Positions 11,368-63,436 of a DNA stretch of 64,000 bases are shown one piece after another. Both the position numbers and the translations under genes were made by a program. A model generated the notes under the pieces. That model searched no databases. It had not been told where the DNA came from and was given only the letters and a program-made list of their open reading frames with translations. The first letter of the stretch is position 1; each line of letters starts with the position of its first letter. This DNA is from Candidatus Poribacteria bacterium (GTDB taxonomy: Bacteria; Poribacteria; WGA-4E; WGA-3G), in NCBI GenBank assembly GCA_963665235.2, contig CAXXLX010000001.1, positions 3,230,031 to 3,294,030 on the forward strand. Reading direction: 5' to 3'.

Positions 11368-11560
11368 AATTAGAAGTTGACATACTCCCCCAGCTAAAGC
11401 AAGGGGGATTCTTTTGAAAGTGAATCCCATGCTCTCTGGTGCGGATTGTGGGGTATAGACTTCGGGTGAAGTCTGCGAGGGCTGCTCGCAATAGCAAGAC
11501 TGACATCCTCTAATCCAAAGGTTGATGCCCCAACCTTTAAAATATTTATGGCAGCGTTAA
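11356..11560 (-). ncRNA. Predicted TnpB omega-RNA (reRNA): a scaffold overlapping the tnpB 3' end and right end, plus ~20 nt of flanking guide
   Basis: The position follows established IS605 TnpB biology. Several hairpins are visible on the minus strand: GACTTC-ACCC-GAAGTC (11458-11473), GGGATTC...GAATCCC (11405-11428) and TCCCCC...GGGGGA (11386-11408). The last ~35 nt are conserved in the second, decayed element at 25096-25130. Confidence 0.4.
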
Positions 11561-12596
11561 CGTCCCGATGGTGTTTCTGCGCGCAAGTAGAACAACACCA
11601 TTGACGAACAGACAAGTCCAGCTGCTGTTTTCGCTGTCCACAGTGGCTACAAGTCTTAGAAGTCGGTTCAAAACGGTCAATATAGTGAACCTCTTTACCG
11701 TGTTTGACCGCTTGATGTTGCAACTTTTGATGAAACGAGTAGGGCGCAATATCAGAAACTTGACGACCCCAGATGCGTTTCATCCCCTCAAAAGTCAACG
11801 TCTCAAAACAGAGGTCATCGTGTTCATGCACAAAACGCTTCGCGAGTTTCCAATGATGATCCTCACGTTGTCTCTTGATTTTACGGTGTTTGCGTGCCAC
11901 ATCTAAGCGGGAACGCTCACAGTTGTTGCTACCCTTTACTTTCTTAGCATGGGCACGTTGTGCCACAGACAAATCCGCCATAGAGGTTTTATAGAACTCA
12001 GGAGACGCATATTCTGTGCCATCGGAACAGGTGAACATCGTTTTGATACCGAAATCATACCCTGCAGCACTACCCGTCTTAGGTAGGATTTCAGATACGG
12101 TGTCATCTGTTACAACACACATATAGAAGTCACCAACGCTATCTGCTTTGATAGTGACTGTCTTAATATTACCTACTATCTCGCGGCTTAGATTAAACCG
12201 ATATTGTTTTTCCATTATACGGACCCTATCACCATAGAAACTATAGCCAGAGGGGGACATTGTGAATGAATACGGTTTGCGCCATGAACGAAACTTAGGC
12301 GGACGCTTCGCAATACACTTAAAAAAACGCTGATACCCGGTGTCTAAACGCCGCAGTATATCACGCGCCGCCCAAGAGTCTAACTCACGCCAGTGCGAAA
12401 ACACTTCAGGATGTGAGTTCCTAAGGACGGTAAAGGCACGCGACATCTCAGGAAGCGACATATACGCAAGACCAAGAGAATAGCGCGTCCGCTGCCAACC
12501 TAAAAAATAGTTCCAAACATCATGGGCCACCCACGTTAAACGCTTGAGATTACGATTACGCGGGGCACGAAAAAGTTTGTATTTTGTGGTATACAT
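11394..12596 (-). CDS. tnpB: RNA-guided endonuclease TnpB (IS605 OrfB family), apparently intact
   Basis: 400 aa. The RuvC triad is visible: D in AAGYDFGIK, E in LCFETLTFEG and D in HHRDVNAAINIL. The zinc ribbon is CSHCG...CCSTC. Confidence 0.9.
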   Translation of the reverse strand: MYTTKYKLFRAPRNRNLKRLTWVAHDVWNYFLGWQRTRYSLGLAYMSLPEMSRAFTVLRNSHPEVFSHWRELDSWAARDILRRLDTGYQRFFKCIAKRPPKFRSWRKPYSFTMSPSGYSFYGDRVRIMEKQYRFNLSREIVGNIKTVTIKADSVGDFYMCVVTDDTVSEILPKTGSAAGYDFGIKTMFTCSDGTEYASPEFYKTSMADLSVAQRAHAKKVKGSNNCERSRLDVARKHRKIKRQREDHHWKLAKRFVHEHDDLCFETLTFEGMKRIWGRQVSDIAPYSFHQKLQHQAVKHGKEVHYIDRFEPTSKTCSHCGQRKQQLDLSVRQWCCSTCAQKHHRDVNAAINILKVGASTFGLEDVSLAIASSPRRLHPKSIPHNPHQRAWDSLSKESPLL

Positions 12597-22281: not shown

Positions 22282-22746
22282 TTACAGTTTATCTAATTCG
22301 CTCAGCACCTGTTCCGCTGTCAACGTGTTGTCAGGGGGCGCATCTTCCACGTGTTTAAAGGCGATTTTGCCAGCTGCATCTATAATAAAAACACCGCGCG
22401 TGGTAATGCCAACCTCTTCAAGTGCCATGCCATACTGCTTTGAGACTTCAAGATTCATATCCGAAAGCAGCGGAAAACCGATACCGCCAAGTGACTCACT
22501 CCACGCCTTATGTGCAAACGTCGAATCTCGGTTGATGGCGATAACCTCGGCACCCTTCGCTTGAATAGCGTCTAAATTCTCATTAAAATCTGGAACTTGT
22601 TCAGAACACACGGGCGAAAAATCGAGCGGATAAAAAAGAATTACCAACTTTTTGCCCGCAAAATCTGCTAGGGTGACATCCGTATCTTCCTGATTTGTAG
22701 AGCCCGATAAACTGAAATCCGGGGCTGAATTGCCTATTTCTGCCAT
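22282..22746 (-). CDS. Peroxiredoxin (AhpC/TSA family)
   Basis: 154 aa with VILFYPLDFSPVCSEQ holding the peroxidatic Cys. An AGGAGG RBS lies 8 nt upstream. Confidence 0.85.
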   Translation of the reverse strand: MAEIGNSAPDFSLSGSTNQEDTDVTLADFAGKKLVILFYPLDFSPVCSEQVPDFNENLDAIQAKGAEVIAINRDSTFAHKAWSESLGGIGFPLLSDMNLEVSKQYGMALEEVGITTRGVFIIDAAGKIAFKHVEDAPPDNTLTAEQVLSELDKL

Positions 22747-22771
22747 TGAAAAAACCTCCTACTAATTGAAT

Positions 22772-23082
22772 CTATAGTTTGGACAATATCCGTGACCGTG
22801 AGCCCCGCTTTCAAAGCCTCTCTGATTTTTCTCTAAGTGCCTCACACAAGGACAAAGAAGAGAAAAATAGTTTCCGCCGATGGGTTTTCCAAAGCGCGGT
22901 TTACCCAGCGGGGCGGAATGTTTATAGAATGTTGGAAACCATTAGCAGTTAGCAAGAGGATTGTGATGCTAAGCCTATCTCTACTGCGCGTCAAAACCCG
23001 CTTCCACCCTTCCATTCTTCCACCCTTCCACCTATCCCTTTGACAAGAACGTTGTGCCTCCCTAAAATTGTCCAAACTTTAG
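22772..23082. mobile_element. MITE-B (311 bp) with a perfect 9-bp TSD TAATTGAAT, inserted between the prx promoter and its RBS
   Basis: The terminal inverted repeats are CTATAGTTTGGACAAT (22772-22787) and ATTGTCCAAACTTTAG (23067-23082), matching at 15 of 16 positions. TAATTGAAT occurs at 22763-22771 and 23083-23091. The interior holds one hairpin unit (22901-22929) and a GGAAGGGTGG-type module related to 33242-33262. Confidence 0.75.
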
Positions 23083-23122
23083 TAATTGAATTGGAAACCT
23101 GTTAAAATTTTCAGTCATGCAA

Positions 23123-23151
23123 ATTATACCATAAACACGAACAAAATGCAA
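23123..23151 (-). promoter_or_regulatory. Likely prx promoter, now ~370 nt from the start codon because of MITE-B
   Basis: The minus strand reads TTGCAT, a 17-nt spacer, then TATAAT with an extended-10 TG (TGGTATAAT). Confidence 0.4.
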
Positions 23152-23319
23152 AATATTTTTTCTGCTAAAATTCAGAATTTTTTCTAAAAAAGGGGTGTGT
23201 AAAGTTTTTGTACGTCTGCGATATTTTTTATGAAGAAAAATAGAACAGTTCGCAACTAATACCATTTTTATTAATTATTCTATCATTACCGGTTGTTAGA
23301 AATGAAACGGAGAACGGAA

Positions 23320-23486
23320 GACCCAAACTGGAAGTTTATGCTACAATAACACACAGCACAAACTGGAAGTTTATGCTACAATAACACACAGCACAAACTG
23401 GAAGTTTATGCTACAATAACACACAGCACAAACTGGAAGTTTATGCTACAATAACACACAGCACAAACTGGAAGTTTATGCTACAA
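23320..23486 (+). repeat. Tandem repeat, 35-bp unit, about 4.7 copies
   Basis: CAAACTGGAAGTTTATGCTACAATAACACACAGCA starts at 23324, 23359, 23394, 23429 and 23464 (the last copy is partial). The core GGAAGTTTATGCTACAAT is also present inside the short MITE-A copies. Confidence 0.9.
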
Positions 23487-23659
23487 GAAAGAGGCATTTT
23501 CAATTAGAAATGGTATAATATAACAGCACCCCAAAACATTTTTGGGAGGCAAGCGGTGCGTTTTGCAACTCACCGGATTGGACACCGATACCGTGTGTCA
23601 AAAAGTGTAACATTTACACACAAACCGCATCAAAAAGTAGGCGGCAGAACGCTAAAAAA

Positions 23660-23934
23660 ACGTGAGTTTGGAAAAAGTTTTCCCCTAGTAGTCGGTAGTA
23701 GTCGGTCAAACAGCCCGCTCCTTGTGGACGATATGTTTATGGGGGCGTGTGTTTCTGCCCTTCTCTTAGTCCCAGTATTCGGGCAAGCAGCCCGCTCTTT
23801 AAGGACGATATATTTATAGAAATAGGTGTCCTCCCCCCCGCCTTAGTCCCAGTATTCGGGCAAGCAGCCCGCTCTTTAAGGACGATATGTTTATAGGGGT
23901 TAGTGCAAACGGACATTTATTATCAAACTCACGT
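23660..23934. mobile_element. MITE-A copy 3 (275 bp, long form), TSD TAAAAAA(A)
   Basis: The ends are ACGTGAGTTTGGAAAAAGTTTTC... and ...GGACATTTATTATCAAACTCACGT, flanked by TAAAAAA on both sides. It is collinear with copy 2 and includes three hairpin units. Confidence 0.75.
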
Positions 23935-24264
23935 TAAAAAAAGTAGGCAGGACACACAACCGAAAACCGCAGACGAAATGGCACATTTTGTTTTTTTGTG
24001 TTGCGAAAAATATAGGACAAAACCGCTTACAAAGCTATGCGTGACGTGCGTTCACGCACATGCAACACCGAAAACCGAATGTTACACTTTGTGTCAAAAG
24101 TGTAACTTATGCACCGGTTTTGTACAAAAACTTTACACACTCAATAGAACTTTGACTTTTGGTCTAAAATGTGGTATACTATTTAGACTGACTCAGCGGT
24201 TAATGTTACAAACGTTAGCCGCCCCTTTTGTAGAGGGAGTCAGAAACCTTTCATGAGTTAGGAT

Positions 24265-25094
24265 ATGGAAACCTACAAAACACACAAAATCGCATTAGCC
24301 CCTAACAATGAGCAACGTAGTTGGTTTTTTCAACAAAGCGGCTACTTCCGTTTTGCCTATAATTCTGCTTTAGCAGACTTCAAGGCAGGCGACGTGCAGT
24401 GATGGGACGCGATATGAGAACCCGAGGCCTTTGAAACGGTATGAGCGAAAGTTAGCCCGTGCCCAACGGAAGTTGAGTCGCCAAGTTCCGCAGTCTAAAA
24501 ACTGGTTCAAGCAGAAGCGCATCATTGAACGTATCCACTATAAAGTCACCTCTATCCGCTGCGATGTGCACCATAAAGCAAGCACGGATATTGTTAATCG
24601 TGCAAGTGCTATCGGGATTGAGACGCTAAATGTGAGCAACCTGCTAAAGAACAAGAAACTGTCCAAAGCATTATCGGATAGTGCGTTAGGGGGGTTTCTA
24701 TTGTTGCTAAAGACGAAAGCCGAGGCTTGTGGTATCCCTGTAATCGAAGCCTCCCAGTTCTTTGCAAGCAGCAAGACGTGCGGCAGCTGCGGCCACAAGA
24801 AGACGGACTTGACACTCTCAGAACAGGATTCGGGCAAGCAGCCCGCTCTTCCATTGCTGTGAATGTGGGACCTCAATAGATAGAGACCTCAATGCTGCAA
24901 TAAATTTAAGAAATCTCGCGGCAGGGCATGCCGAGAGCCTAAACGCCTGTGGAGTCCAAATAAGACCCTCTAACTCTCATGCAACTTTTCCGAGAGGGGG
25001 GCACGAGAGACAGGCTTCAGGAAACCAACAGCCTGCTCTTAAGCAGGAAAAGCCGTTTGGAAATAACTCAGTTTGTTTCCAGTATAAGAGCTAA
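24265..25094 (+). pseudogene. tnpB: Decayed tnpB with an internal deletion and a frameshifting 25-nt insertion
   Basis: The N-terminal 45 codons (METYKTHKIALAPNNEQRSWFFQ...) run into a stop. ORF 24431-24862 then encodes only the C-terminal half: IETLNVSNL with the RuvC E, and CGSCGHKK. After LTLSEQ comes a 25-nt insert (24827-24851), then in another frame [19 protein letters not shown]. The right-end hairpin and GAGTATGTCAA lie at 25096-25130. Confidence 0.8.
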
Positions 25095-25221
25095 GAATCA
25101 CCCTTGCTTTAGCTGGGTGAGTATGTCAAACTAACGTGAGTTCGGAAACCTAAGCAATTTTGGAAACTGATGGATAGAGGACACACAGGCTATAGCAATT
25201 AAAAACGGAGAGGACACACAG

Positions 25222-28104
25222 ATGAAACGATTAGCACTTCTAGGATTTATTATAGCAATTGGACTTATCGGAAACCTAACACCCTATGCCCAGCAAACAC
25301 CAAACCAGGCGGTGCCGCCGAGTGCTTCGCAAGTAGAACCTTTACTCAAACGCATGACAGCGCGTCTCTCTGGAAAGGTTGTCTGGGAAGGACAGGACCT
25401 CTCACAGACAAACGTGTCGGTGTATCGGGATAAAAAACTACGTGCCCTTTACACAAGTGGCCTCTCCGATTTAAAAAACCCCGGCACCTTCACGCTCCGC
25501 GTAGAGCCGGGCAGGTATTATTTAGCCGCCTATGTTGATGTCGATGGGTCAGGCCAATTTGACGAGGGGGATGGCTACGGAGTCTTAGGCGTTAAGCAGT
25601 GGGAAAATACGGAACAAACCTATCAAGCAATTGATATTGGTGATAACGCACGATTGACGAATATAGAAATTTTTATAACGGCACGACTTCATAACACCAC
25701 GGAGGGCTCCATACTCGTCTCTACATCCCAATATCAACCGAGCAAAGTTCAGCAATTTAAAACGGAGTTAAACAAGATAACATCAGGGTGCCGAGGGACT
25801 CTAAAACTTAGGAAAGATACGAAACCGAACGGACAAGCTGCCCCCACCCTTGAAAAAAATCCGAAGTTAATCCTTGCTTACACAGATACATCGTGGAAGT
25901 ACCGTGCGGGTATCACACAGGTAGATGCAAAAACCGGACGATGGGAACTCCGATTGAAACCGGGCAAGTATTACCTCATGGGGATTGTGGATAAAAATTC
26001 TAGCAATAGACTGGATAGTGGGGATACCTTCGGATTTTACGGCGTTGCAAAAATTGGACAACCCGGTAGCTTTCCACAACCTATCCTCATCGAACCTAAT
26101 ACCTTCACCGAGGGGCTAGAGATACAAATTTCTGCAATCTATACGACAAAACGGCAGACAGAAAAAAGCAAAATCACCGCAGCTGTTACGGGGACCGTAA
26201 ACGCCACACCACAAGGCGAAGCAGTAATACGGATTGAGGCGTACCGCACCGCAGCGTTAGTTGTGCCTGTTGCCAGTACGCAAACAGACGCGGATGGAAA
26301 ATTTCGGCTCCAACTGCCCCCCGGAGAATACTACCTCCTCACAAACCATGATGCGGATGCGGATGGAAGGTACAGTGAAGGGGATAGCCTTGGCGGTTGG
26401 GGGACAAATGCTATTACATCACACCCCCCGGCGCGTTTAACCCTTGCTGATGGCGAAACACGCACGATTGCTATTCATCTGACCGCACGTTATGAAGCAG
26501 ATGGACAACTTCGTGCCATACCGATAACTAAACAGAACCCTGATACACTTCCAGGGTTAAAGGTTGCCGATGGGACATCCACAGATGAACCATCGGGTAG
26601 TTTGACTGGCAAAATAACCTCATATTTCTCACCGCTGCGGGAAAAAGGTGAGATGCTAAAGAAGCGACAACCCACTGATAGCCAAGACGGGATTGAACAG
26701 AAACGCACCCCGAACGGTATTTTGAGCCTTTCCCTCACACCCGATTTTGAGTCGCCGATGTGGATGCCGCTTTTCATCGAAGACGATGGCAGTTATCGTG
26801 TTGATGTCAAGCCCGGAAAATATTACATCATGGCGGTCCTTGACCAAAACGGAGATGGACGCTCAGGCCTCTCTGATGGTATCGGTATCTACGGGACACA
26901 TCTACCGGTCCGGGGTACGCCCGCCGCTGTCAACGTCCTCCCAAACGAGACAACGCCACACGTCGATATTGACATCCTCGCTTCCTATATTGATGAAAAA
27001 GGCACTATGGCGGAACTTAAAGATGGCGGACGATGGGATATTGCACGAATCCACGGACACCCTGAAGATATTTTCAAATATACACGCGCAGGAAAAACTA
27101 TCGAGGAATGGGTTTACTGGACAAAAGGTCTCGCTTTTCAATTCGTAGCGGATGGCGCAGGCTGGAAACTCAAAAAGCAGGATGAATTTCAAACGAAAGC
27201 ACAGGGGACAGAAGCAGACACACAAGACGCTGAAAATCCACAAACGGCTGAACACGCTAAGCAAACACAGCCTGAGACATCCCCTATCACAGGGCAGCCT
27301 GTGGCTATCTATTATAGTCATGACGGTATTTTATGGCGAATAACACCCGATGCAACCCTCTCACCTATTGGGGCAGGGTTTTATCCGAATGCCTCAGAAA
27401 ACGGGGCACTCGTTTATCAGGATATTGATGCCAATGTTATCATTCAAGATGTGGTAACAGGACAGGGGACCGTACTCCTTGACAACAGACACAGGGTGCA
27501 AGAAGCGGTCATCTCGCCGGATGGGGATTATCTCGCCTGGACGCATACCGAGCACACAGGACGAAAACGGATTACTGTTCAGCATTTACCGAGTCAGAAA
27601 CATTTCACAATTCCATCAACCGCCCGCGAAATCTCTATGCCCGCATGGCGTAGAGATGGCCAATTGCTCGCATATTGTGCCACAGGCACTATTGAAAACC
27701 GTGATGATACCGGACGAAATAGGAATATCTATGCTTTCGACTCTGTAACAAACAGCGTTGAACCTATCGTTGTTTCACCTACTGACGATGCCGACCCCGC
27801 ATGGAATCCATCGGACCTCAATACGCTTGCATTTTCTCGGAAAAACGGGGACGACTATCGCCAAATTTGGATTGTTACCTTTTCTACTACGGGACAGCGA
27901 ACTGAACAGCAGATAACTAAAATGGGCGGAAGTCGACCGGTCTGGATTCCCGCCGATGGACGCTGGATACTCTATGAAAACAATGGACAACTCTGGACTG
28001 TGGATACACGAACCCCCGACAGCGAAGCCCCATTACTGAACAATGGAAAGGTTATCTTCGGATACCACCCTTCTACTGTCCCGATAGAAGTAGATAGCAA
28101 ATAG
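25222..28104 (+). CDS. Large secreted protein with four DUF2141-like beta-sandwich repeats and a C-terminal PD40/TolB-like propeller
   Basis: 960 aa with a signal peptide. The internal repeat occurs four times: GRYYLAAYVDVDGSGQFDEGDGYGVLG, GKYYLMGIVDKNSSNRLDSGDTFGFYG, GEYYLLTNHDADADGRYSEGDSLGGWG and GKYYIMAVLDQNGDGRSGLSDGIGIYG. PD40-like motifs include ISPDGDYLAWT and PAWNPSD. Confidence 0.7.
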   Translation: MKRLALLGFIIAIGLIGNLTPYAQQTPNQAVPPSASQVEPLLKRMTARLSGKVVWEGQDLSQTNVSVYRDKKLRALYTSGLSDLKNPGTFTLRVEPGRYYLAAYVDVDGSGQFDEGDGYGVLGVKQWENTEQTYQAIDIGDNARLTNIEIFITARLHNTTEGSILVSTSQYQPSKVQQFKTELNKITSGCRGTLKLRKDTKPNGQAAPTLEKNPKLILAYTDTSWKYRAGITQVDAKTGRWELRLKPGKYYLMGIVDKNSSNRLDSGDTFGFYGVAKIGQPGSFPQPILIEPNTFTEGLEIQISAIYTTKRQTEKSKITAAVTGTVNATPQGEAVIRIEAYRTAALVVPVASTQTDADGKFRLQLPPGEYYLLTNHDADADGRYSEGDSLGGWGTNAITSHPPARLTLADGETRTIAIHLTARYEADGQLRAIPITKQNPDTLPGLKVADGTSTDEPSGSLTGKITSYFSPLREKGEMLKKRQPTDSQDGIEQKRTPNGILSLSLTPDFESPMWMPLFIEDDGSYRVDVKPGKYYIMAVLDQNGDGRSGLSDGIGIYGTHLPVRGTPAAVNVLPNETTPHVDIDILASYIDEKGTMAELKDGGRWDIARIHGHPEDIFKYTRAGKTIEEWVYWTKGLAFQFVADGAGWKLKKQDEFQTKAQGTEADTQDAENPQTAEHAKQTQPETSPITGQPVAIYYSHDGILWRITPDATLSPIGAGFYPNASENGALVYQDIDANVIIQDVVTGQGTVLLDNRHRVQEAVISPDGDYLAWTHTEHTGRKRITVQHLPSQKHFTIPSTAREISMPAWRRDGQLLAYCATGTIENRDDTGRNRNIYAFDSVTNSVEPIVVSPTDDADPAWNPSDLNTLAFSRKNGDDYRQIWIVTFSTTGQRTEQQITKMGGSRPVWIPADGRWILYENNGQLWTVDTRTPDSEAPLLNNGKVIFGYHPSTVPIEVDSK

Positions 28105-35210: not shown

Positions 35211-36578
35211 ATGTTAAACTATGGACTCGTAAGCACAGCTAGTGCTGATGACCGGCAGAAACTGCAAAATGGGATACGCTGCTTAGGCACAATGGCACAC
35301 AAATACGGTATTCCGGTAACGTGGGCAATGGATGCTGCTTCAGCACAATTTCTAGCGAAGGATGTGACTGAATGGCACGCCGAATATGGCGATGAGCCGC
35401 TACTGATGCTAGATATCAAACCGTTGTGGGAGACAAACTGGGCAACCCTCACAGAGGAGGACGACTCCCATAACACCTCGCGGGTATCCGCATCGCCAGA
35501 AATTGTCGCAGAGCACCTCGTCAAAATGCGGGAGATGTTACCGCAATACGTGACTACCGAATGTAATCGGCTCAAAAAGGCGATGACCTGGGCAGCCCCA
35601 AGTGTTGCTGGGGCAGTTTGGAAAAACGGTGTCCTCCTTCATGCCCTAGAGCAAACAGGTTTCCGAGGATTATGGGGGTATCGCTGGAACGAACGCAACT
35701 CGGAGGCGGAGGCAGACCGCGGCTGTCCGTTTGGCTACTTTTATCCATCTATAGAACAGCATAACTTCAGTGCCCCGACAGCGGGGAGCATCGCTGGCAT
35801 CCCCTATCTTACCGCTGCCCATTTAGAAAACGATGCGAATAATCTTCGCGCCTCGCTTCTAAACGGCACGGCACAGCGAAGCTACGATGTTTACGTAGAG
35901 AATCGACAGTGGAATCGATGGCTCGGTTATGTGCAACATATCAATGCAGTTGAGGTAACACAATTTGGACAAGAGACGTTGGAACGGCTAGAGGCATATT
36001 TCGACTATGTGGCTAGCGATGAAAACACAAAGCTTTTGCCCCTGTCTGAAATGGTTGACGATTATTGGACAACTTGCCAGCAGACGGAGCCGACCTATAT
36101 TATCGCGAGTGCCCTTGAATGTCAAACTACGCAGGAGTCCGCGAATTCAGATTCAGCTACGGAATCAAAAACGGATGAGCAAAAGATGTGTTTCTATTAT
36201 GATGCCGAATGCCAACTTACCTTTGTTGAGGGAACAGCGGAACCGGTTGAAATGAAAAACTATATTTCACCGCCAGTTTTGGAGACACCTGGGGGACAGA
36301 TTTCGGAGCTCAGCGCGCCTGCCCCTGGGATTGAATACCATTTACCCAAGATCACGCGATTTCTGCCGAGTCGACAACGTTCAAAATTGCACATCACCTT
36401 CGCAATTGAATCGACAAAGGCGATGCCCTACGGTATAGCGATATGGGGCAATCACAGCGGCTTGCAACTCGCTACATCTAACGTCGACGCTGTCACCTGG
36501 ATAGATAAATACATGCTGTTTGTACGGTTCAGTTTGCAACCGGGAAACAACGAATTTGAAGTGATATTGACAATTTGA
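35211..36578 (+). CDS. Hypothetical protein
   Basis: It is a 455-aa uninterrupted ORF with coding-like composition. No motif was recognised. Confidence 0.55.
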   Translation: MLNYGLVSTASADDRQKLQNGIRCLGTMAHKYGIPVTWAMDAASAQFLAKDVTEWHAEYGDEPLLMLDIKPLWETNWATLTEEDDSHNTSRVSASPEIVAEHLVKMREMLPQYVTTECNRLKKAMTWAAPSVAGAVWKNGVLLHALEQTGFRGLWGYRWNERNSEAEADRGCPFGYFYPSIEQHNFSAPTAGSIAGIPYLTAAHLENDANNLRASLLNGTAQRSYDVYVENRQWNRWLGYVQHINAVEVTQFGQETLERLEAYFDYVASDENTKLLPLSEMVDDYWTTCQQTEPTYIIASALECQTTQESANSDSATESKTDEQKMCFYYDAECQLTFVEGTAEPVEMKNYISPPVLETPGGQISELSAPAPGIEYHLPKITRFLPSRQRSKLHITFAIESTKAMPYGIAIWGNHSGLQLATSNVDAVTWIDKYMLFVRFSLQPGNNEFEVILTI

Positions 36579-36611: not shown

Positions 36612-37844
36612 ATGGAAAAAGTTTTAGGCTTAAAATGTCGTGAATGTGAACGGAAATATCCGAAGGAACCGCTTCACGTTTGCGAGTTCTGTTTCGGTCC
36701 GCTTGAGGTAGACTATAACTACGAAGCTATTCAAAAGTCCATCTCAAGACGCTCAATTGAGCAGGGACCGCAAAGCTTGTGGCGATACGTCGACCTGCTA
36801 CCGATTGATGAGGCACCAACAGATGGGCTCAACTCCGGTTTTACGCCCTTAATCCATGCGAAAAATTTAGGCGATACCCTCGGCGTTAAGCATCTCTATA
36901 TTAAAGACGATTCGGTATGTCACCCGACACTCTCTTTCAAAGACCGCGTTGTATCGATTGCCTTGAGCAAGGCAAAAGAATTCGATTTTGACACAGTGTC
37001 ATGTGCATCAACCGGCAATTTAGCGAACGCAGTCGCTGCGCATGCTGCTATCGCTAATCTGAACTGTTTCATTTTCATTCCTGCAGACCTCGAACTTGGC
37101 AAAGTGGTGGCTTCGCTCGTTTATGCCCCTACGGTAGTAGGCATCACGGGTACCTACGACGAAGTGAACCGACTATGCAGTGAAATTGCTGGGGTTTATC
37201 CGTGGGCATTTGTGAACATTAACATCCGTCCCTTCTATGCCGAAGGTTCAAAAACGCTCTGCTTTGAATTGATTGAACAACTCGGTTGGGAGGCACCGGA
37301 CCACATCATCGCGCCTGCTGCTGGTGGGTCGCTAATTACAAAAATCGGCAAAGCACTTAAGGAGTTTTACCACCTCGACCTCATAGAAAAACCAAATACT
37401 AAAATTCATGTTGCACAAGCAGCGGGGTGCGGACCGATTGTCAATACCTACAAGGAAAATGGGGATTTTGTCAAACCGGTGAAACCGGACACTATCGCCA
37501 AATCGCTTGCTATTGGGAATCCAGCAGACGGTATTTATGCCGTGAACACTGTCCGGAAATCCGGGGGCATCGGCGAACATGCCACCGATGACGAAATCAT
37601 TGAAGCCATTAAACTGCTCGCCGCTACCGAAGGGATTTTTACCGAGACTGCCGGGGGAGTCACGCTTGCGGTCGCTAAAAAACTCATCGAAAACGGACAT
37701 ATCACACCCGATGAACGCACTGTGCTCGCTATTACAGGCAACGGTCTCAAAACCATAGAAGCTCTTGAAAAGAAAACGGATGAACCGCATATCATCGCAC
37801 CACAACTGAACGCTTTTCGGAAACTGATGGCAAGCATCGAATAA
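36612..37844 (+). CDS. thrC: Threonine synthase
   Basis: 410 aa with an N-terminal zinc ribbon KCRECERKYPKEPLHVCEFCFGPLEV and PLP-lysine motif HPTLSFKDR. Confidence 0.9.
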   Translation: MEKVLGLKCRECERKYPKEPLHVCEFCFGPLEVDYNYEAIQKSISRRSIEQGPQSLWRYVDLLPIDEAPTDGLNSGFTPLIHAKNLGDTLGVKHLYIKDDSVCHPTLSFKDRVVSIALSKAKEFDFDTVSCASTGNLANAVAAHAAIANLNCFIFIPADLELGKVVASLVYAPTVVGITGTYDEVNRLCSEIAGVYPWAFVNINIRPFYAEGSKTLCFELIEQLGWEAPDHIIAPAAGGSLITKIGKALKEFYHLDLIEKPNTKIHVAQAAGCGPIVNTYKENGDFVKPVKPDTIAKSLAIGNPADGIYAVNTVRKSGGIGEHATDDEIIEAIKLLAATEGIFTETAGGVTLAVAKKLIENGHITPDERTVLAITGNGLKTIEALEKKTDEPHIIAPQLNAFRKLMASIE

Positions 37845-51828: not shown

Positions 51829-52037
51829 AGTATGTAATCCCTTCCTTATTTATTTCGGTGTGTGCTGGCATTTGCAAATATATCAACACACGGGACAAAT
51901 TAATTTCACTATTTTAAGAATTATGCCATATTTCTCTATTTTTTTCAAGGTATTTTTGTTTTGGAAAAAAACTTGACGAAACTTCAAAAGATATAGTATA
52001 CTATGTAACACAGAAATTCACTAGCGGAGGAAATTTT

Positions 52038-52835
52038 ATGAATTTAATGCGAATTGGTATAGTGATCCTTGTCGCTGTCTGTTGGCTGAGCTCCCCCACT
52101 CACGCCGCTATAGATGGCAAGAATATCAGGGGGATGTGGCTCTTTGACGGGGCAGGTGACACCGCAAAAGATTCCACAAAAAACGGCAACGACGGTAAAA
52201 TCCACGGCGGAACCAAACGGGTCGATGGAAAGTTCGGAAAGGCACTTGAATTTGATGGCACAGACGGTTGGGTCGAAGTGCCACATTCGGATAGTGTCGC
52301 GTTCAAAAAAGGCACCTCTTTCACGATTACGCTCCATTTTAAAGGCACTAAAATTGGTGGTTCGCTCGTTGGCAAAAACTATGAAGATCAATCACAAGCT
52401 TTACCTTGGTACCTGCTTTGGAACGGCGGTAACAATAACATTCTATCCCTCTACCTACGCAATTCTCAAAGTCAGAACTTTAGAATTGATGGCACGTCCG
52501 ATATAGGTGATGACAAATGGCATTTTATCGCCGCCAGAGCGGATGCCGCTGCGCAAAAAATCTCTTTGTGGATAGATGGGAAACAGGAAGCCGAAGGTAA
52601 TTTTGATACCAACGATGGATACGGCACAAGTGACGGTGTGTTTCATATCGCACGACACTTTGACCGATATACCGCCGGTATCATCGACGACGTGGCACTC
52701 TTCAATATCGCCTTGAGTGAAGCCGACATGAAGACCATCATGGATAACGGCGTTGAAGAAGCTGCCGCAGTGGAACCTGTAGACAAATTAACAACCACGT
52801 GGGGCAAACTCAAACGCCACACACAAGCACAATAA
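52038..52835 (+). CDS. Secreted LamG domain protein with a KLTTTWGKLKR C-terminal tag
   Basis: 265 aa with a signal peptide. The core has MWLFDGAGDTAKDSTKNGNDGKIHGG...GKFGKALEFDG and IIDDVALFNIALSEADM. The C-terminus is AVEPVDKLTTTWGKLKRHTQAQ. Confidence 0.85.
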   Translation: MNLMRIGIVILVAVCWLSSPTHAAIDGKNIRGMWLFDGAGDTAKDSTKNGNDGKIHGGTKRVDGKFGKALEFDGTDGWVEVPHSDSVAFKKGTSFTITLHFKGTKIGGSLVGKNYEDQSQALPWYLLWNGGNNNILSLYLRNSQSQNFRIDGTSDIGDDKWHFIAARADAAAQKISLWIDGKQEAEGNFDTNDGYGTSDGVFHIARHFDRYTAGIIDDVALFNIALSEADMKTIMDNGVEEAAAVEPVDKLTTTWGKLKRHTQAQ

Positions 52836-52850
52836 GGAGAAATTTAATTT

Positions 52851-53657
52851 ATGTATCTAGCTAAAAATATGGGTGTCGCTTTAGCGATGCTGCTCGGGCT
52901 CTGTTTGCTAATACCCGCTCCTAGCTCAGCAAGCTTTGACTTCGATAACATCATGGGGATGTGGCTCTTTGACGAAGGGGAAGGGACGGTCGCAAGCGAT
53001 TCTTCAGAAAACGGAAATGATGGCACTATCCACGGCGCGACCTGGGTAAATGGCAAATTCGGAAAAGCACTCCAATTCGATGGAGCCGCGAACTGGGTTG
53101 AAGTCCCACACTCTGACACTGTCGGGTTTGAAGCCGGAACTTCGTTCACGCTCACACTGCATTTCAAAGGCACCAAGGTCGGCGGCTCACTCGCTGGCAA
53201 AAACTATGAGGATAAATCGCAAGTTTTACCGTGGTATATGCTCTGGAACGGCGGTGGCGATAACAAGGTAACCTTCTTCTTACGGAATACTGCCTCAGTC
53301 AGCTATAGACCCCAGAGCGCAACCGAAATCGGGGATGACGAATGGCACTTCGTCGCTGGCAGAGCGGACGCTGAAACAGGTAAGGTAACCTTGTGGATAG
53401 ATGGGAAACAGGAAGCCGAACTCGATTTTGACACAAACAGCGGATACGGCAACAGCGAAGGCGTATTTCACATCGGACGACACTTCGACCGATATACCGC
53501 TGGCATCATCGACGAAGTCCTCCTTTTCAATGTCGCCCTCGATGAAGCGGATATGAACGCAATTATGGAAGACGGTATCCAAACAGTTGCTGCTGTTGAA
53601 GCCTCTGGCAAACTTACAACAACCTGGGGCACACTGAAGCAACGGGTAACACGATAA
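52851..53657 (+). CDS. Secreted LamG domain protein, tandem paralog, with a KLTTTWGTLKQ C-terminal tag
   Basis: 268 aa and collinear with the preceding gene. The C-terminus is AVEASGKLTTTWGTLKQRVTR. Confidence 0.85.
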   Translation: MYLAKNMGVALAMLLGLCLLIPAPSSASFDFDNIMGMWLFDEGEGTVASDSSENGNDGTIHGATWVNGKFGKALQFDGAANWVEVPHSDTVGFEAGTSFTLTLHFKGTKVGGSLAGKNYEDKSQVLPWYMLWNGGGDNKVTFFLRNTASVSYRPQSATEIGDDEWHFVAGRADAETGKVTLWIDGKQEAELDFDTNSGYGNSEGVFHIGRHFDRYTAGIIDEVLLFNVALDEADMNAIMEDGIQTVAAVEASGKLTTTWGTLKQRVTR

Positions 53658-53666
53658 ATTGCACTG

Positions 53667-53693
53667 AGGGTGGGGTTTCAAATCCCACCCTAC
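53667..53693 (-). repeat. GTAG-headed REP-like palindrome, a possible terminator
   Basis: The minus strand reads GTAGGGTGGGATTTGAAACCCCACCCTC. Confidence 0.65.
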
Positions 53694-53751: not shown

Positions 53752-54855
53752 GTGAAGCAATTACAGACACTCTTCATATTAGCATTATTGCTACTGGCGG
53801 GCTTGAACTGTGGAACAACAGACAATCCTGTCAATCAACCCGAAGACATTGAAACGCCAACCGGCAGCCTCCAAGGCGAAGTGGCACCAATTGAGGGCAT
53901 CCCAGTCCAGGTACGTCTAATAAAAGCGGGACAACTCATCGCGCAAACTGAAATAGATAGCAGCTACGAATTTAGCGGCATTGAAGAGGGCAATTATACA
54001 ATCCAGCTCACCGCCAAAGGGTATGAAACAGTTGAAATAGACGTGACAGTCGTCGCGGAACAGACTGTACCCGTCGATAAAGTGACACTTGTGGCGTTGA
54101 CAGCCCCCGTATCACATCTACGAGGCGTTCTAACCGACGCGGAAACAGAAGCACTCCTCTCCGAAGTTAGAATTCAACTTACGGATGAAGCCGGTGAAAA
54201 ACAGGAAACGCTCACAACGAAAGATGGGGTATTCACCTTTGAGAATCTCCCGATTAATCAGACGTTTACCTTGACTGTTAAACACACCGGTTATGAAGAT
54301 AACGAAGTCAACGTAAAACCGATTCCTGCCGATGAAACCTTTGAACTGGATATAGAACTTACGCCGGTCCCCGAGCAGGAGGAGTTGGGCCCAGGGGAAG
54401 GGTTAAGTATTGGCAGTGATGCCCCAGGATTTAAACTGCCCGATGCCAATAATAAGCAGCACGCGCTTGCGGACTACATCGGCAAAAAAAATGTTGTCCT
54501 TGTGTTCTTTCGCGGCCGTTTCTGACCGTTTTGCCGAACGCAACTCGGTGAGTTGCAAGAAAATTACGGTAAAATTCAAGCCGAAGGTGCCGAACTTATC
54601 GCCATCAGCTCCGATGACGTAGCTGAGACAAAACGGACAGTTCAAAACCAAGGTATTCAATACATCATCCTTGCTGATAGCGACAAACAGGCTATTACTG
54701 CTTACAACGTCGTCGATCCGCAAAACAATCGGCTAGCACGTCCAGCAAGTTATATCCTAAAAGCAGATGGCACTATCGCTTGGAAATTTCTTGATGTCCG
54801 AGTAGATAATCGGGTGCCGACTGCACAAATTTTGAACGAATTAGGAAAACTCTGA
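53752..54855 (+). CDS. Candidate selenoprotein: lipoprotein with two CarboxypepD_reg-like domains and a peroxiredoxin/thioredoxin-fold domain carrying U-P-F-C (in-frame TGA at 54523-54525)
   Basis: ORFs 53752-54525 and 54553-54855 are in the same frame and are separated by a single TGA, with no other stop. The read-through product reads VVLVFFRGRF-U-PFCRTQLGELQENYGKIQAEGAELIAISSDD. That is the canonical VVLVFFRGxWCPxCxxQL...GAxLxAIS redoxin motif, with the TGA at the first Cys. A hairpin lies downstream of the TGA. Confidence 0.7.
54528..54575 (+). promoter_or_regulatory. Putative bacterial SECIS element
   Basis: The upper stem is GCAACT (54540-54545) paired with AGTTGC (54551-54556), with apical loop CGGTG. 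Its first G is 22 nt after the TGA. A lower stem, 54528-54536 paired with 54567-54575, has 9 pairs including 2 G-U. Confidence 0.5.
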
Positions 54856-55970
54856 TGAAACCTTACGATGCGGTAACAGCAAACATTGTGGCGGACTGCG
54901 AAGAGGCAGTAAACACCCGGAATAGACTCCATCGAAGGGAATTCTTGGGCCAACTCGGCATTATTGGTGGGGCTTCTGCGCTTAGCACACTCCCCGCATT
55001 CGCACAAAGCAGCGGACAAGTTCCACCTGACACCCAAAAAAAGACGCTGCCTACGCCAGTTGTTGAAGTACTCGGTAAACAGGTGTGGGAGAACGAACAG
55101 CTGAACGAAGCAGCAGCAGGCGAAATGCTCGAACAAGGGTTAATCAAACTTACCGGACGCGATTCCCTAAAAGAAGCTTGGCGCGACTTTGTACTGCCAG
55201 ACGATATTGTCGGCATAAAAATCAATCCGCTCAGCGGGCCCGGGCTAAGCACACATTCTGTTATCGTTGACAAAATTATTGAGGGATTATTCAGCGCAGG
55301 TGTTCTTCGGAAACAGATTATCATCTGGGATCGGTTTAAAGAACACCTCCTTAACGCTGGTTACCCGATTAAAACCGATGAAGGCGATGTCCGAACGCTT
55401 GCCTCCGATATGGAGACTATCGGCTACGATGACGAGGTCTTTTATGAAACCGAGAAGGACAGTAGCACCCGACGCGAAAATGAGAGCATCCGTTCCCGAT
55501 ATTCACGGATTGTCACACAACAGGTGGATGTCATTATTAATGTGCCGGTCCTAAAACATCACGATATAGCAGGCGTGAGCGGATGCTTAAAAAACCTCGC
55601 CTTCGGAAGTGTTGATAATACCCGCAGATTCCATGGGAGACCCATCTACTGCAATCCCGCCATCGGTGAAATTTGTGCACATAAGGTGCTGAAGGAAAAA
55701 TTAACCCTAAATATCGTTGACGGCCTCGTTGCCTCCTATGACCGAGGGCCGACCTATCACGCCGAAAATACATGGAAATATGGCGGAATGTTTATCAGCA
55801 CCGATCCGGTTATTCTTGACGTGCTTATCCTCCAAACTGTCAACCAGAAACGCGAAGAATTAGGGTTGAGTTCTATGTCTAGATACGCTAACTATATCAA
55901 CAACGCAAGTAGCCTCGGCTTAGGTCAGTCTTCGATTGCCCAGGTCGATTTTCAGAAAATTGAGGTTTAA
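54855..55970 (+). CDS. TAT-signal DUF362 domain protein
   Basis: 371 aa. The start overlaps the preceding stop (TGATG). It has the twin-arginine motif HRREFLGQLGIIGGASALSTLPAFA and a DUF362-like core, VGIKINPLSGPGLSTHSVIVDKIIEGL. Confidence 0.65.
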   Translation: MKPYDAVTANIVADCEEAVNTRNRLHRREFLGQLGIIGGASALSTLPAFAQSSGQVPPDTQKKTLPTPVVEVLGKQVWENEQLNEAAAGEMLEQGLIKLTGRDSLKEAWRDFVLPDDIVGIKINPLSGPGLSTHSVIVDKIIEGLFSAGVLRKQIIIWDRFKEHLLNAGYPIKTDEGDVRTLASDMETIGYDDEVFYETEKDSSTRRENESIRSRYSRIVTQQVDVIINVPVLKHHDIAGVSGCLKNLAFGSVDNTRRFHGRPIYCNPAIGEICAHKVLKEKLTLNIVDGLVASYDRGPTYHAENTWKYGGMFISTDPVILDVLILQTVNQKREELGLSSMSRYANYINNASSLGLGQSSIAQVDFQKIEV

Positions 55971-60324: not shown

Positions 60325-61560
60325 ATGGCGCATTTTCATTTCAGACAATCTTCAATTGCAATCGTCCTTGTGCTCATAGCACTTACCTTCGTGATGTGTC
60401 AAGAAAGCCCCGCGGATAAAATAGTGTCAAGTCTTCACGGACAGGTTATAGATGTGGAAGGTAAACCGGTTGCAGGTCTCAAACTCGCTATGAAACCTGT
60501 TAAATTTGTAGGGTTTAATGCTGGTTTAGTGCCACGTACACCTTTCTCTTCGTGGGCAAGGGTAGTGACAGATAAGGAGGGGAAATTCTATTTCCATAAT
60601 ATAGGTCGTGTTTCATCACAATTCGTAATGTTCCCGGAACACGGCTCGGATTATGAAATCGTATCAATGGCATTTGGAGATTTAACCTTCTATTCCACTG
60701 CCTACATTCGAAATTTACCATCCTATTTTGGAAAACTCACCTTTACTGTTGGACCGCGCAATCATCTTAAAAATGTGATAGTCAAGGTGAGACCGCCTCG
60801 GATGCGAATTCGGGGACGAATTCTCTTGAAGGATGGCACTCCACTTGCGAATGCAGAAATTGGTCTTACCGTCCGGCATCGCCAGCGGAAGACCCAATTT
60901 CTCTTCTTCTCCGATATCCGTGGTGGTGGCGCGTCAGGAATGGTTAGTACGACCGATGCCGAAGGCTATTTCGTATCATATTATCCACAGGAAGCTGGAG
61001 AATACTCAGTAGCCGTGAAATATGAGGGCGCGTCCGCAAAGTCAAAATGGTTTCGTATTAAAGAGGGACAGCGGTACGATAAGCTCGTTTTGAGACTTAA
61101 AGACTTGGAAAAACATCGTGCTGAACGCAATAAAAGGTTGAAAGCGCGACAAGCGATGTGGACAGTAAATCCTGACAATCACCACGCTTACAAGAAAATT
61201 GTGTGTGACAGCTGGGAAGATGCAAAAGCGAAAGCGGAAGCCGAAGATGCCTATATAGTCGCCATTAATGACGAAGCGGAGCAGCAATGGTTGGCCGCAG
61301 TTTATCCGAAGAAAACGTTCTCTTGGATTGGGCTCCGTGTTCCCAAAAAAGAGGCAGCCTGGCTGTGGGACAGCGGCGAGCCTTTCACCTATGCAAATTG
61401 GATAGCCCCCAAGGCACCCGAGCTTGCGCCTACTATCAATAACGAAGTGCCAGTCGCTATGGAACCCTTTTCAAAGAAATGGATAGCAATTGAGCCTGGA
61501 AGCCCATTCTTATCTGCGATTAAGTACGCAATTCTCGAAAAAGAGGATATGCCTAATTAG
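60325..61560 (+). CDS. Secreted protein with CarboxypepD_reg-like domains and a C-terminal C-type lectin-like domain
   Basis: 411 aa with a signal peptide. It has LHGQVIDVEGKPVAGLKL and IRGRILLKDGTPLANAEI. The CTLD reads HHAYKKIVCDSWEDAKAKAEAEDAYIVAINDEAEQQWL...WIGL...AAWLWDSGEPFTYANW. Confidence 0.75.
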   Translation: MAHFHFRQSSIAIVLVLIALTFVMCQESPADKIVSSLHGQVIDVEGKPVAGLKLAMKPVKFVGFNAGLVPRTPFSSWARVVTDKEGKFYFHNIGRVSSQFVMFPEHGSDYEIVSMAFGDLTFYSTAYIRNLPSYFGKLTFTVGPRNHLKNVIVKVRPPRMRIRGRILLKDGTPLANAEIGLTVRHRQRKTQFLFFSDIRGGGASGMVSTTDAEGYFVSYYPQEAGEYSVAVKYEGASAKSKWFRIKEGQRYDKLVLRLKDLEKHRAERNKRLKARQAMWTVNPDNHHAYKKIVCDSWEDAKAKAEAEDAYIVAINDEAEQQWLAAVYPKKTFSWIGLRVPKKEAAWLWDSGEPFTYANWIAPKAPELAPTINNEVPVAMEPFSKKWIAIEPGSPFLSAIKYAILEKEDMPN

Positions 61561-61951: not shown

Positions 61952-63436
61952 ATGACCCGTCTTCCTTTCACCAAACAGATTTTTGTATGGTTAACAATAG
62001 GTATTGTGTGGGGACTCGCTGCAGCGGATTGGGAAGCTGCCGCCGAGCAATCGTCAACGTTATCCGGACGCGTTATCAATGCCGAAGGTAAACCACTTGT
62101 CGAAACCCCCATCGTCCTGCTATACGTCAAAATTGCCGAAAATGGCACAGTAGACACCCTATTTGACAGGGTGCTGTATCCTTTTCTCCGCCAGATGCCG
62201 GCCGCCGATACGCCATCCCATCTTAACAGGAGAAGGCAAGCACTTAATCAGAAGCTGCCGCATCCCCCCTTTTTGGAAACCGAAACCGATTCAGCCGGAC
62301 AATTCACCTTCACCGACATCGTTACGGGCCCTGTACAATTAATGGTCCTGCCGATGGAAAATGAGCAGTCACCGCCTCCCGCGGACCCGCACTTCATTAA
62401 GCCGCTACCCGAAATTCAGACCATTACGTTCGGAAAAATGAAATTTCACCCGACTTTATCCATTTTTTTCCCACTGCTCGACACAGTCACCTTTGCTATT
62501 AAGCCGGGCGTAAACCTCCAAAACGTAGAAGTCAAAATGGCAGTCCCCAGAGAAATTCGGGGCAGAATTGTTTTCAAAAATGGTGAACCGCTCGCCGACA
62601 CAACCTTTAAGATTAACCTCAGTCTGCTTGACGTTGACCCCGACATGCTGCTAGGTATGGGCCAGATAGATGAATTCGGCATCTGGTACCCATTAAATAC
62701 GGATGCCGATGGAAATTTCGTCCTTCCTTTCCATGCATCTATGAATTGTGTACTATCCGTTAACCATCGTGGACTTTCCACAGCACTAAAACCGTTTATC
62801 ATCGAAGAGGGAAAAATCCCCGAAACTGTTGTTCTAATGCTCAACGGCAATCCCGAAGACCTTGCCGAACTGCCACCTGAAATTCCCGAAGAGCATCAAT
62901 ACCTCCTACCGAACGTCCCAGGTACCTGGATAGTGAACCCCGCAAATGGACACGCCTACAAATGGATTGCCTGTAAGAATCGTGAGGATGCACAAGTCAA
63001 GGCGGAGGCCGAAGGCGCGCATCTGCTTACAATTAATAGTGAAACTGAACAGATATGGATTGAAGCTGTCTTTGAATACGGCCCCTATTGGATTGGATTG
63101 ACCGACATGCTAAAAGAGGGGGAATGGCTGTGGGAAACTGGAGAGCCTGTCACATACACCAATTGGAAAAAGCCCGATGTAATTGAAGAGAATTCCGATG
63201 AACCCCCGGCTCTTCTCAAGTTCTTCGGGGTCAAAAGTGAGGAGCAACGCCAGAAGGATGAAGAGGCGGACTACGCCATTATACCCGCACGCTGGTGGGG
63301 CGCAATCGGGCAATGGGTAGCAGTTGACGAAGAAGGCAGATTTCACGGAGAAATCCTGATGGCAATTATTGAGCGGGATGGAATGCGCTCAAAACTACTC
63401 AACTTGCCACCTGACATGAAACCAAACAGAAAGTGA
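61952..63436 (+). CDS. Secreted protein with CarboxypepD_reg-like domains and a C-terminal C-type lectin-like domain; paralog of 60325-61560
   Basis: 494 aa with LSGRVINAEGKPLVETPI and IRGRIVFKNGEPLADTTF. The CTLD reads GHAYKWIACKNREDAQVKAEAEGAHLLTINSETEQIWI...WIGLTDMLKEGEWLWETGEPVTYTNW. Confidence 0.75.
   Translation: MTRLPFTKQIFVWLTIGIVWGLAAADWEAAAEQSSTLSGRVINAEGKPLVETPIVLLYVKIAENGTVDTLFDRVLYPFLRQMPAADTPSHLNRRRQALNQKLPHPPFLETETDSAGQFTFTDIVTGPVQLMVLPMENEQSPPPADPHFIKPLPEIQTITFGKMKFHPTLSIFFPLLDTVTFAIKPGVNLQNVEVKMAVPREIRGRIVFKNGEPLADTTFKINLSLLDVDPDMLLGMGQIDEFGIWYPLNTDADGNFVLPFHASMNCVLSVNHRGLSTALKPFIIEEGKIPETVVLMLNGNPEDLAELPPEIPEEHQYLLPNVPGTWIVNPANGHAYKWIACKNREDAQVKAEAEGAHLLTINSETEQIWIEAVFEYGPYWIGLTDMLKEGEWLWETGEPVTYTNWKKPDVIEENSDEPPALLKFFGVKSEEQRQKDEEADYAIIPARWWGAIGQWVAVDEEGRFHGEILMAIIERDGMRSKLLNLPPDMKPNRK

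Follow-up and report, generated by a model that had tools for sequence, protein, structure and literature searches.

An in-frame TGA at the catalytic cysteine position of a putative Poribacteria redoxin lipoprotein marks a probable selenoprotein

We analysed a 64,000-nucleotide stretch of DNA from a Candidatus Poribacteria bacterium (the window; contig CAXXLX010000001.1 of assembly GCA_963665235.2, positions 3,230,031 to 3,294,030 of the forward strand; all coordinates below are window positions). Poribacteria are uncultured, and sponge symbionts are found among them. Positions 53752-54855 of the + strand very probably form a single gene for a secreted selenoprotein of 367 residues, in which UGA258 would be decoded as selenocysteine (Sec). 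The frame opening with the GTG at 53752 is interrupted by a single TGA at 54523-54525 and then remains open up to the TGA at 54853-54855, as expected from the original prediction, which had described two open reading frames (ORFs) in one frame split by one TGA. The peptide around this TGA reads ...VVLVFFRGRF-[TGA]-PFCRTQLGELQ.... The GTG start is preceded by AAAGGA, and the N-termini of the orthologs read MKQ.... The elements of the gene are as follows.

53752-54855, + strand: predicted complete selenoprotein coding sequence of 367 codons, from the GTG start to the terminator TGA 54853-54855, with codon 258 for Sec
53752-53811, + strand: signal peptide with a lipobox-like end (MKQLQTLFILALLLLAGLN-C20), Cys20 codon at 53809-53811
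53878-54363, + strand: two carboxypeptidase-regulatory-like/PEGA-type beta-sandwich domains, approximately residues 43-110 and 123-204
54409-54783, + strand: AhpC/TSA (thioredoxin-fold) redoxin domain, residues 220-344, with the TGA inside
54523-54534, + strand: U-P-F-C redox motif, putative Sec codon TGA 54523-54525, resolving Cys261 at 54532-54534
54540-54556, + strand: candidate selenocysteine insertion sequence (SECIS)-like hairpin GCAACUC-GGU-GAGUUGC, stem 54540-54546/54550-54556, loop GGU 54547-54549

Domain searches on the read-through product were made with Cys substituted at the TGA. Pfam PF00578 (AhpC-TSA) matched with 106.6 bits against a cutoff of 26 (E=1e-30), over model positions 1-123 of 124. 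Residue 258 falls within this match, so that each half of the gene encodes an incomplete thioredoxin (Trx) fold. No complete domain of this kind was present in either half (PF00578 covers residues 220-344), in agreement with the earlier claim that neither half would be functional alone. The start of the second ORF (TTG 54553) falls in the hairpin, 3' of the active site.

Species-representative genomes yielded 38 loci with a full-length match crossing the stop, 36 of them labelled Poribacteria and 2 labelled "uncultured bacterium". Together with the window, these 38 ortholog loci make up the 39 Poribacteria genomes compared here. The internal codon was TGA in all 39, far more often than chance would give, and the frame 3' of it remained open for 108-109 codons in every genome (39/39). 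By contrast, the true terminator varied (TGA in 23 genomes, TAA in 13 and TAG in 3), while the internal codon was constant. In the four orthologs equal in length to the window gene, the nonsynonymous differences per site (pN) 3' of the TGA were 0.16-0.27 and the synonymous differences (pS) 0.53-0.73, indicating purifying selection on the downstream part. The sequence following the TGA in Poribacteria reads, in frame, PFC[R/L/V/K]xQL[G/V]ELQxNY...AELIAISSD. The 53752-54855 region is therefore one gene, neither truncated nor two genes, an alternative that had been raised together with the prediction.

Approximately 37 homologs belonging to other phyla have TGT or TGC (Cys) in the TGA column, where the surrounding sequence reads FYRGGW-C-P[YF]C. 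The sources of these Cys homologs include Paenibacillus, Planctomycetota, Opitutales, Lysobacterales, Bacteroidota and Actinomycetes, and the proteins are stand-alone (200-220 aa) or epimerase fusions. No Cys ortholog sharing the lipoprotein/immunoglobulin (Ig)-like/redoxin architecture was found among the homologs. Outside Poribacteria, TGA occupied the column in two Acidobacteriota and one Anaerolineae homolog as well. All Sec homologs carry U-[PNG]-x-C, and the window gene has U-P-F-C. The proposal that the TGA replaces the first Cys of the CxxC motif in an AhpC/TSA protein was thus borne out, as was the expectation of Cys or TGA in the same column. Pairing of Sec and Cys at one column is a standard signature for identifying selenoproteins (PMC9312934), and here it excludes a sequencing error, a pseudogene or two separate genes.

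The databases hold the two parts of this gene separately. The read-through protein gave 197 homologs; the best 120 of the 197 all have lengths of approximately 255-285 aa and a C-terminus reading ...F[YF]RG[GV][WF], one residue short of the CxxC. For the 109 residues encoded 3' of the TGA there were 231 matches, and the best 120 of the 231 are all fragments of 99-101 aa. These C-terminal fragments come from Candidatus Poribacteria and are named "redoxin domain-containing protein", "peroxiredoxin family protein" or "hypothetical protein". As the matches to both parts are fragments, public annotation splits the gene in two; the stop at the Sec column was found again in more than 100 protein clusters.

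The hairpin begins 14 nt 3' of the UGA, and the distance from the A of the UGA to its first loop G is 22 nt. Both the 22-nt spacing and the loop G match features used in bacterial SECIS prediction. The hairpin and its loop G had been predicted at this distance; we located it at 54540-54556 and found it conserved in the orthologs. It was seen in 41/41 main-type Sec forms and in 6/6 paralogs (described below). The stem codons CAA, CTC, GAG and TTG were each invariant in the 38 Poribacteria sequences (38/38 in every case). Both stem Leu codons are six-fold degenerate, and four different codons serve for other Leu residues close by. Given the codon usage of this genome, the chance of this combination of stem codons is 0.52 x 0.28 x 0.36 x 0.14 = 0.007. 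The synonymous entropy was 1.51 bits at the loop codon (GGN) and 0.6-1.9 bits at the flanking codons. The hairpin also encodes a conserved peptide, so RNA-level and protein-level constraint must be told apart, and the synonymous sites do so: the hairpin is under RNA-level constraint.

Base pairing was counted in 47 Sec-type sequences (45 of them distinct), which include six paralogs and three sequences from other phyla. In the upper hairpin, 95.6% of the cells were paired. The six core pairs were intact in 45/45 distinct sequences, save for the closing C-G pair, broken in one (L040). One pair shows a compensatory change, from A-U to G-C, in the two Acidobacteriota. The first loop base was G in at least 90% of the sequences, and the mean fold energy at the site was -8.1 kcal/mol for the Sec forms versus -4.4 kcal/mol for the Cys homologs. 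A conserved structure after the UGA, with frozen stem codons and one compensatory change, is thus present in the orthologs, and the main support for the candidate element is these frozen synonymous sites, which are comparative and not single-sequence evidence. The 9-bp lower stem of the original prediction (54528-54536 with 54567-54575) fared differently. It does form in the window's own fold, but across the homologs it was 63.7% paired, equal to the shuffled controls, and the lower stem and the UGA pairing were rejected as conserved features.

A paralogous second TGA gene was observed in several Poribacteria. It has the same architecture and hairpin and the motif FYRTGG-U-G[L/A]-C, and it lies between the main Sec gene and the DUF362 gene that follows it (sites L001:12125, L014:12186, L024:11579, L027:4642, L034:13070, L035:6218 and L036). 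This paralog is absent from the window.

The genetic code of the window was evaluated from its terminators. Its 42 long ORFs end in TGA (12), TAG (16) or TAA (14), and the Sec gene itself ends in TGA; a reassigned code was ruled out by this use of TGA as an ordinary terminator. No other credible gene with an in-frame TGA was present within the 64-kb window. Two further ORFs, 35211-36578 (455 aa, no Pfam match) and 36612-37844 (PALP domain), share one frame across a TGA and 33 nt; they are probably separate neighbouring genes whose common frame is coincidental.

Evidence on the Sec machinery comes from elsewhere in the phylum. One of the TGA orthologs belongs to Candidatus Poribacteria WGA-3G (locus L012), for which matches to the COGs of SelA (2), SelB (1) and SelD (1) have been reported (Slaby et al. 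2017, Table S4; PMC5649159). Sec-containing group 4 hydrogenases have also been reported from Poribacteria (PMC13582414). The paralogous TGA gene, the SelA, SelB and SelD matches of WGA-3G and the Sec hydrogenases constitute indirect support for the use of Sec in this phylum.

Several observations weigh against the interpretation of UGA258 as a Sec codon in an exported lipoprotein. Searches for the machinery near the gene were negative: ARAGORN found no tRNA-Sec in the window or in 41 Sec-bearing loci, 41 ORFs of the window contained no sel gene by Pfam, and the E. coli proteins SelA, SelB and SelD had no tblastn match in the window or in 79 loci. These negatives are uninformative, since sel genes normally lie elsewhere in the genome. 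For the hairpin, no SECIS family of Rfam was found in a gathering scan of the whole window or in a permissive scan of 54400-54700. In the window sequence alone the fold is not significant (z=-1.43), and the hairpin lies at the 4th-7th percentile among 55,296 synonymous recodings. Moreover, it encodes the conserved peptide QLGELQ, with codons that are intrinsically self-complementary; partial hairpins also occur in some Cys homologs that have QLSEL; and covariation is confined to one pair in two related sequences. Finally, the Asn at position -1 of the window's lipobox is unusual.

Three other explanations of the TGA were considered. If it were a genuine stop, the gene would encode a 257-aa lipoprotein with Ig-like domains, and what comes after it would be either a small redoxin fragment of its own or the remnant of a decaying pseudogene. 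Gene callers and public annotation treat the locus in this manner and, as Sec decoding in bacteria is usually inefficient, a truncated 257-aa product is probably made too. However, a genuine stop would be expected to vary between the three stop codons, like the one at the end of the gene, and the internal codon is TGA in every genome. In 39/39 of these diverged genomes the part 3' of it has stayed open, with a pN much lower than pS; the AhpC-TSA match extends across the stop and leaves an incomplete Trx fold on each side, and the TTG start of the second ORF lies within the hairpin and past the active site. We therefore regard a genuine stop as extremely unlikely. A sequencing or assembly error, in which TGC or TGT was misread as TGA, would need a change of only one base, but it has practically no probability left: the comparative data refute it, as 38 further species-level genomes, the products of many independent projects, have the same TGA, and the protein clusters mentioned above have the stop. 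With 39 independent assemblies sharing the TGA, the reservation about a sequencing error is settled.

Alternatively, the UGA might be read through with an amino acid other than Sec, by near-cognate insertion of Trp or Cys, by a lineage-specific suppressor or through a reassigned codon. Sequence cannot reveal the chemistry of read-through, and the Sec machinery was not seen in the 64-kb window. Nevertheless, TGA is an ordinary terminator here (12/42 window ORFs and the end of the gene itself), the site coincides with the catalytic Cys column of the homologs, and SelA, SelB and SelD are present in Poribacteria WGA-3G. A hairpin fixed in position, with a loop G and under RNA-level selection, is in addition the hallmark of SelB-dependent decoding. 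Read-through without Sec is consequently very unlikely, and decoding of UGA258 as Sec is the explanation that we favour.

The putative selenoprotein is probably exported and lipid-anchored at Cys20, judging from its signal peptide. Cys20 was unchanged in 34 aligned homologs. The pattern used for bacterial lipoproteins was [LVI][ASTVI][GAS]-C; the window gene has a non-canonical L-N-C, while most orthologs have F-G-C, L-G-C or L-S-C (canonical). The beta-sandwich region matched PF13620 (CarboxypepD_reg) in 2 stretches (E=1e-20), and PF13715 and PEGA matched as well. Within the signal-peptide n-region of many Poribacteria orthologs, a 39-nt tandem repeat (unit CGGTGCAGCTTGCCAACCGAAAACTTGCTATACCAAGGG; peptide ~VQLANRKLAIQRA) was observed in frame (for example at L038:9843-9953, and at the N-termini of P0033, P0042, P0066, P0116 and P0120). 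Its copy number varies from 0 to 3, resulting in forms of 257, 272, 285 and 299 aa, with zero copies in the window gene.

AhpC/TSA proteins with UxxC have been listed as a predicted selenoprotein family since 2004-2005 (PMC1088965, PMC2398784, PMC13188914), under the names "Prx-like protein" and "Prx-like thiol:disulfide oxidoreductase" (of pfam00578, with UxxC/UxxU) and as the 'Prx-like 1' of the Global Ocean Sampling (GOS)/Sargasso Sea selenoproteomes (Prx, peroxiredoxin). The Poribacteria protein resembles them in its AhpC/TSA fold, its predicted Sec at the first position of UxxC (true Sec-Prx proteins have TxxU), its abundant Cys homologs and its hairpin, which follows the UGA directly on the 3' side and bears a G in its small apical loop (PMC1088965, PMC2398784, PMC13188914). 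Membership in this class is solid by PF00578 and UxxC, two of its defining features; the reference member of the family is WP_010940744.1. For the members described, the sources consulted say nothing of a lipoprotein signal, of CarboxypepD_reg domains or of Poribacteria. The protein studied here has a lipoprotein-type signal and such domains, and its predicted Sec is fixed phylum-wide in Poribacteria. Domain fusions of Prx-like selenoproteins were reported earlier (PMC2398784), but the architecture of lipoprotein, Ig-like domains and Sec-redoxin was not mentioned in the selenoprotein reviews and the database paper searched. Consequently, the claim of novelty held only in part: the UxxC AhpC/TSA family is an old one, while the fused architecture (lipoprotein-type signal, two Ig-like domains, Sec-redoxin) and the gene context look undescribed so far.

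The redoxin reached the cutoff of no curated family in NCBIfam. The best solved relative was ResA of B. subtilis (PDB 3c71, E=2e-14; also 1st9), in which WGTW-CPHC-K aligned to RGRF-UPFC-R. The NCBIfam scores were below the cutoff of ResA (57 vs 170) and far below those of DsbE (20.9 vs 123) and TlpA (15.8 vs 230), indicating that the Poribacteria redoxin is not an ortholog of these proteins. It resembles ResA, TlpA and DsbE in being, by prediction, a membrane-tethered Trx-fold protein outside the cytoplasm, and by analogy it would likely perform the same thiol-disulfide exchange. It differs from ResA in its predicted Sec in place of the nucleophilic Cys, in a tether formed by a putative lipid anchor and two Ig-like domains instead of a transmembrane helix, and in a gene located outside any cytochrome c maturation cluster. 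When aligned to Bcp, the protein has Cys261 opposite the peroxidatic Cys, and the Sec occupies the position of the Prx Thr. Together with the alignment of the CPHC of ResA to UPFC, this points to a thioredoxin/ResA-type oxidoreductase rather than a classical Prx.

The F-Y-R-G-x-W-[C/U]-P-x-C context is shared with Peroxiredoxin-like 2/SelL-related proteins, although the score against NF040769 (SelL_rel_redox) was 49 bits and the cutoff is 120. Among listed selenoproteins there is a 'peroxiredoxin-like family protein', which we take to be assigned to cd02970 in CDD, and the Poribacteria protein differs from it in having UxxC and not UxxS. Sec variants of the peroxiredoxin-like 2/SelL-related group have been listed, and the listed selenoprotein is of the UxxS type (PMC13188914).

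The candidate element can be compared with the SECIS of E. coli fdhF. Both are hairpins in the coding sequence soon after the UGA, with a GGU/G apical loop and the loop G 22 nt from the UGA. The Poribacteria hairpin, a candidate known from sequence, differs in its short stem (6-7 bp), its loop of 3 (or 5) nt and the lack of the bulged U present in fdhF, and its spacing is 14 nt versus 11 nt in fdhF.

One gene order was kept in 38/38 loci: 1-2 LamG copies come first, then the Sec-redoxin, then (in some genomes) the paralog, and lastly DUF362. The neighbouring features in the window are the following.

51973-52002, + strand: promoter-like site TTGACG-18-TATACT preceding LamG1, consensus match only
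52038-52835 and 52851-53657, + strand: two Laminin_G_3 (concanavalin-like) secreted proteins, Pfam PF13385, upstream in 38/38 loci
54855-55970, + strand: DUF362 protein with a twin-arginine translocation (Tat)-type RRxFL signal, Pfam PF04015, downstream in 38/38 loci

Signal peptides are present on both LamG proteins, and the four products of the cluster appear to be extracytoplasmic, judging from their predicted signals. In the window, the ATG of the DUF362 gene (54855) overlaps the stop of the selenoprotein gene (TGA 54853-54855), and in 24/38 loci the DUF362 gene starts exactly 330 nt downstream of the internal TGA, that is, abutting or overlapping the stop. The RRxFL signal of the DUF362 protein is conserved, and two of its Cys (C244 and C266) and four of its His are invariant; the protein matched no NCBIfam family. 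DUF362 belongs to one Pfam clan with the N-terminal domain of LarA and has been found fused to carbohydrate-binding modules (PMC11770544, PMC5742341). By consensus matching, no terminator-like site was found on the + strand from the promoter-like site through the 3' end of DUF362. LamG2 and the selenoprotein gene are separated by a spacer of 94 nt that contains a perfect 7-bp hairpin, GGGTGGG-GTTTCAAAT-CCCACCC, at 53668-53690; it has no T-run and is thus not a typical intrinsic terminator.

Further genes of the window were recorded. The region 40960-63436 is rich in secreted, glycan-related and eukaryote-like domain proteins: a SASA esterase, an oligogalacturonate-lyase-like protein, a sulfatase, the LamG proteins, a 662-aa WD40 protein, a beta/gamma-crystallin-DUF1349 protein and two proteins with CarboxypepD_reg and C-type lectin domains (60325-61560 and 61952-63436). 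A Cys-based Prx (Bcp/PrxQ-like, FYPLDFSPVC) is encoded on the - strand at 22282-22746, indicating that the organism also has conventional Cys Prx enzymes. An IS605 OrfB/TnpB gene (Cas12f-like TNB domain; 11394-12596, - strand) adjoins tRNA-Val and tRNA-Met, and a degenerate TnpB-like fragment (24431-24862, + strand) lies inside the otherwise ORF-poor 22746-25222.

These data are consistent with the following mechanism. SelB carrying Sec-tRNA(Sec) would bind the mRNA hairpin located 14 nt 3' of UGA258 and would thereby bring the tRNA to the UGA ahead of termination by release factor 2; selenium would be incorporated at this position. The N-terminal signal peptide with its invariant Cys would direct export and, probably, lipid anchoring. 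The two Ig-like beta-sandwich domains might serve as a stalk for the C-terminal thioredoxin-fold domain, which would carry the Sec258-Pro-Phe-Cys261 centre. With Sec at the exposed nucleophile position of a ResA/thioredoxin-type CxxC, this domain would most likely be an extracytoplasmic selenol/thiol-disulfide oxidoreductase, in which Sec attacks a disulfide of the substrate, or else an oxidised sulfur or a peroxide, and Cys261 resolves the selenenyl-sulfide. The direction of this reaction is one that we infer, as is the client protein. The best candidate client, and the most economical guess, would be the co-encoded Tat-signal DUF362 protein with its two invariant Cys.

A broader and rather improbable proposal is that the cluster forms a Poribacteria-wide extracytoplasmic module of four genes, in which two LamG lectin-like proteins accompany an Ig-stalk selenoprotein whose membrane-anchored selenol/thiol centre keeps the two invariant Cys or a cofactor of a Tat-exported DUF362 protein (LarA clan) reduced in oxygenated surroundings. 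If this were true, the module would be a selenium-dependent system of periplasmic maintenance tied to glycan processing, and the lack of any surviving Cys ortholog in the phylum would reflect how indispensable Sec has been.

The understanding of Sec decoding or of the Prx-like selenoproteins is unchanged by this gene, and the finding will not surprise a specialist. It does correct a systematic annotation error, in which hundreds of entries present the gene as two, one a "carboxypeptidase regulatory-like domain protein" and the other a "redoxin/peroxiredoxin" of 99 aa, and it offers a clean natural case of a minimal candidate SECIS, in which the RNA constraint is visible as frozen synonymous sites. 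For Poribacteria, the gene would add a phylum-wide, apparently obligate selenoprotein to a poorly charted selenoproteome, and it points to a conserved secreted cluster (LamG, Sec-redoxin and Tat-DUF362) that is now testable.

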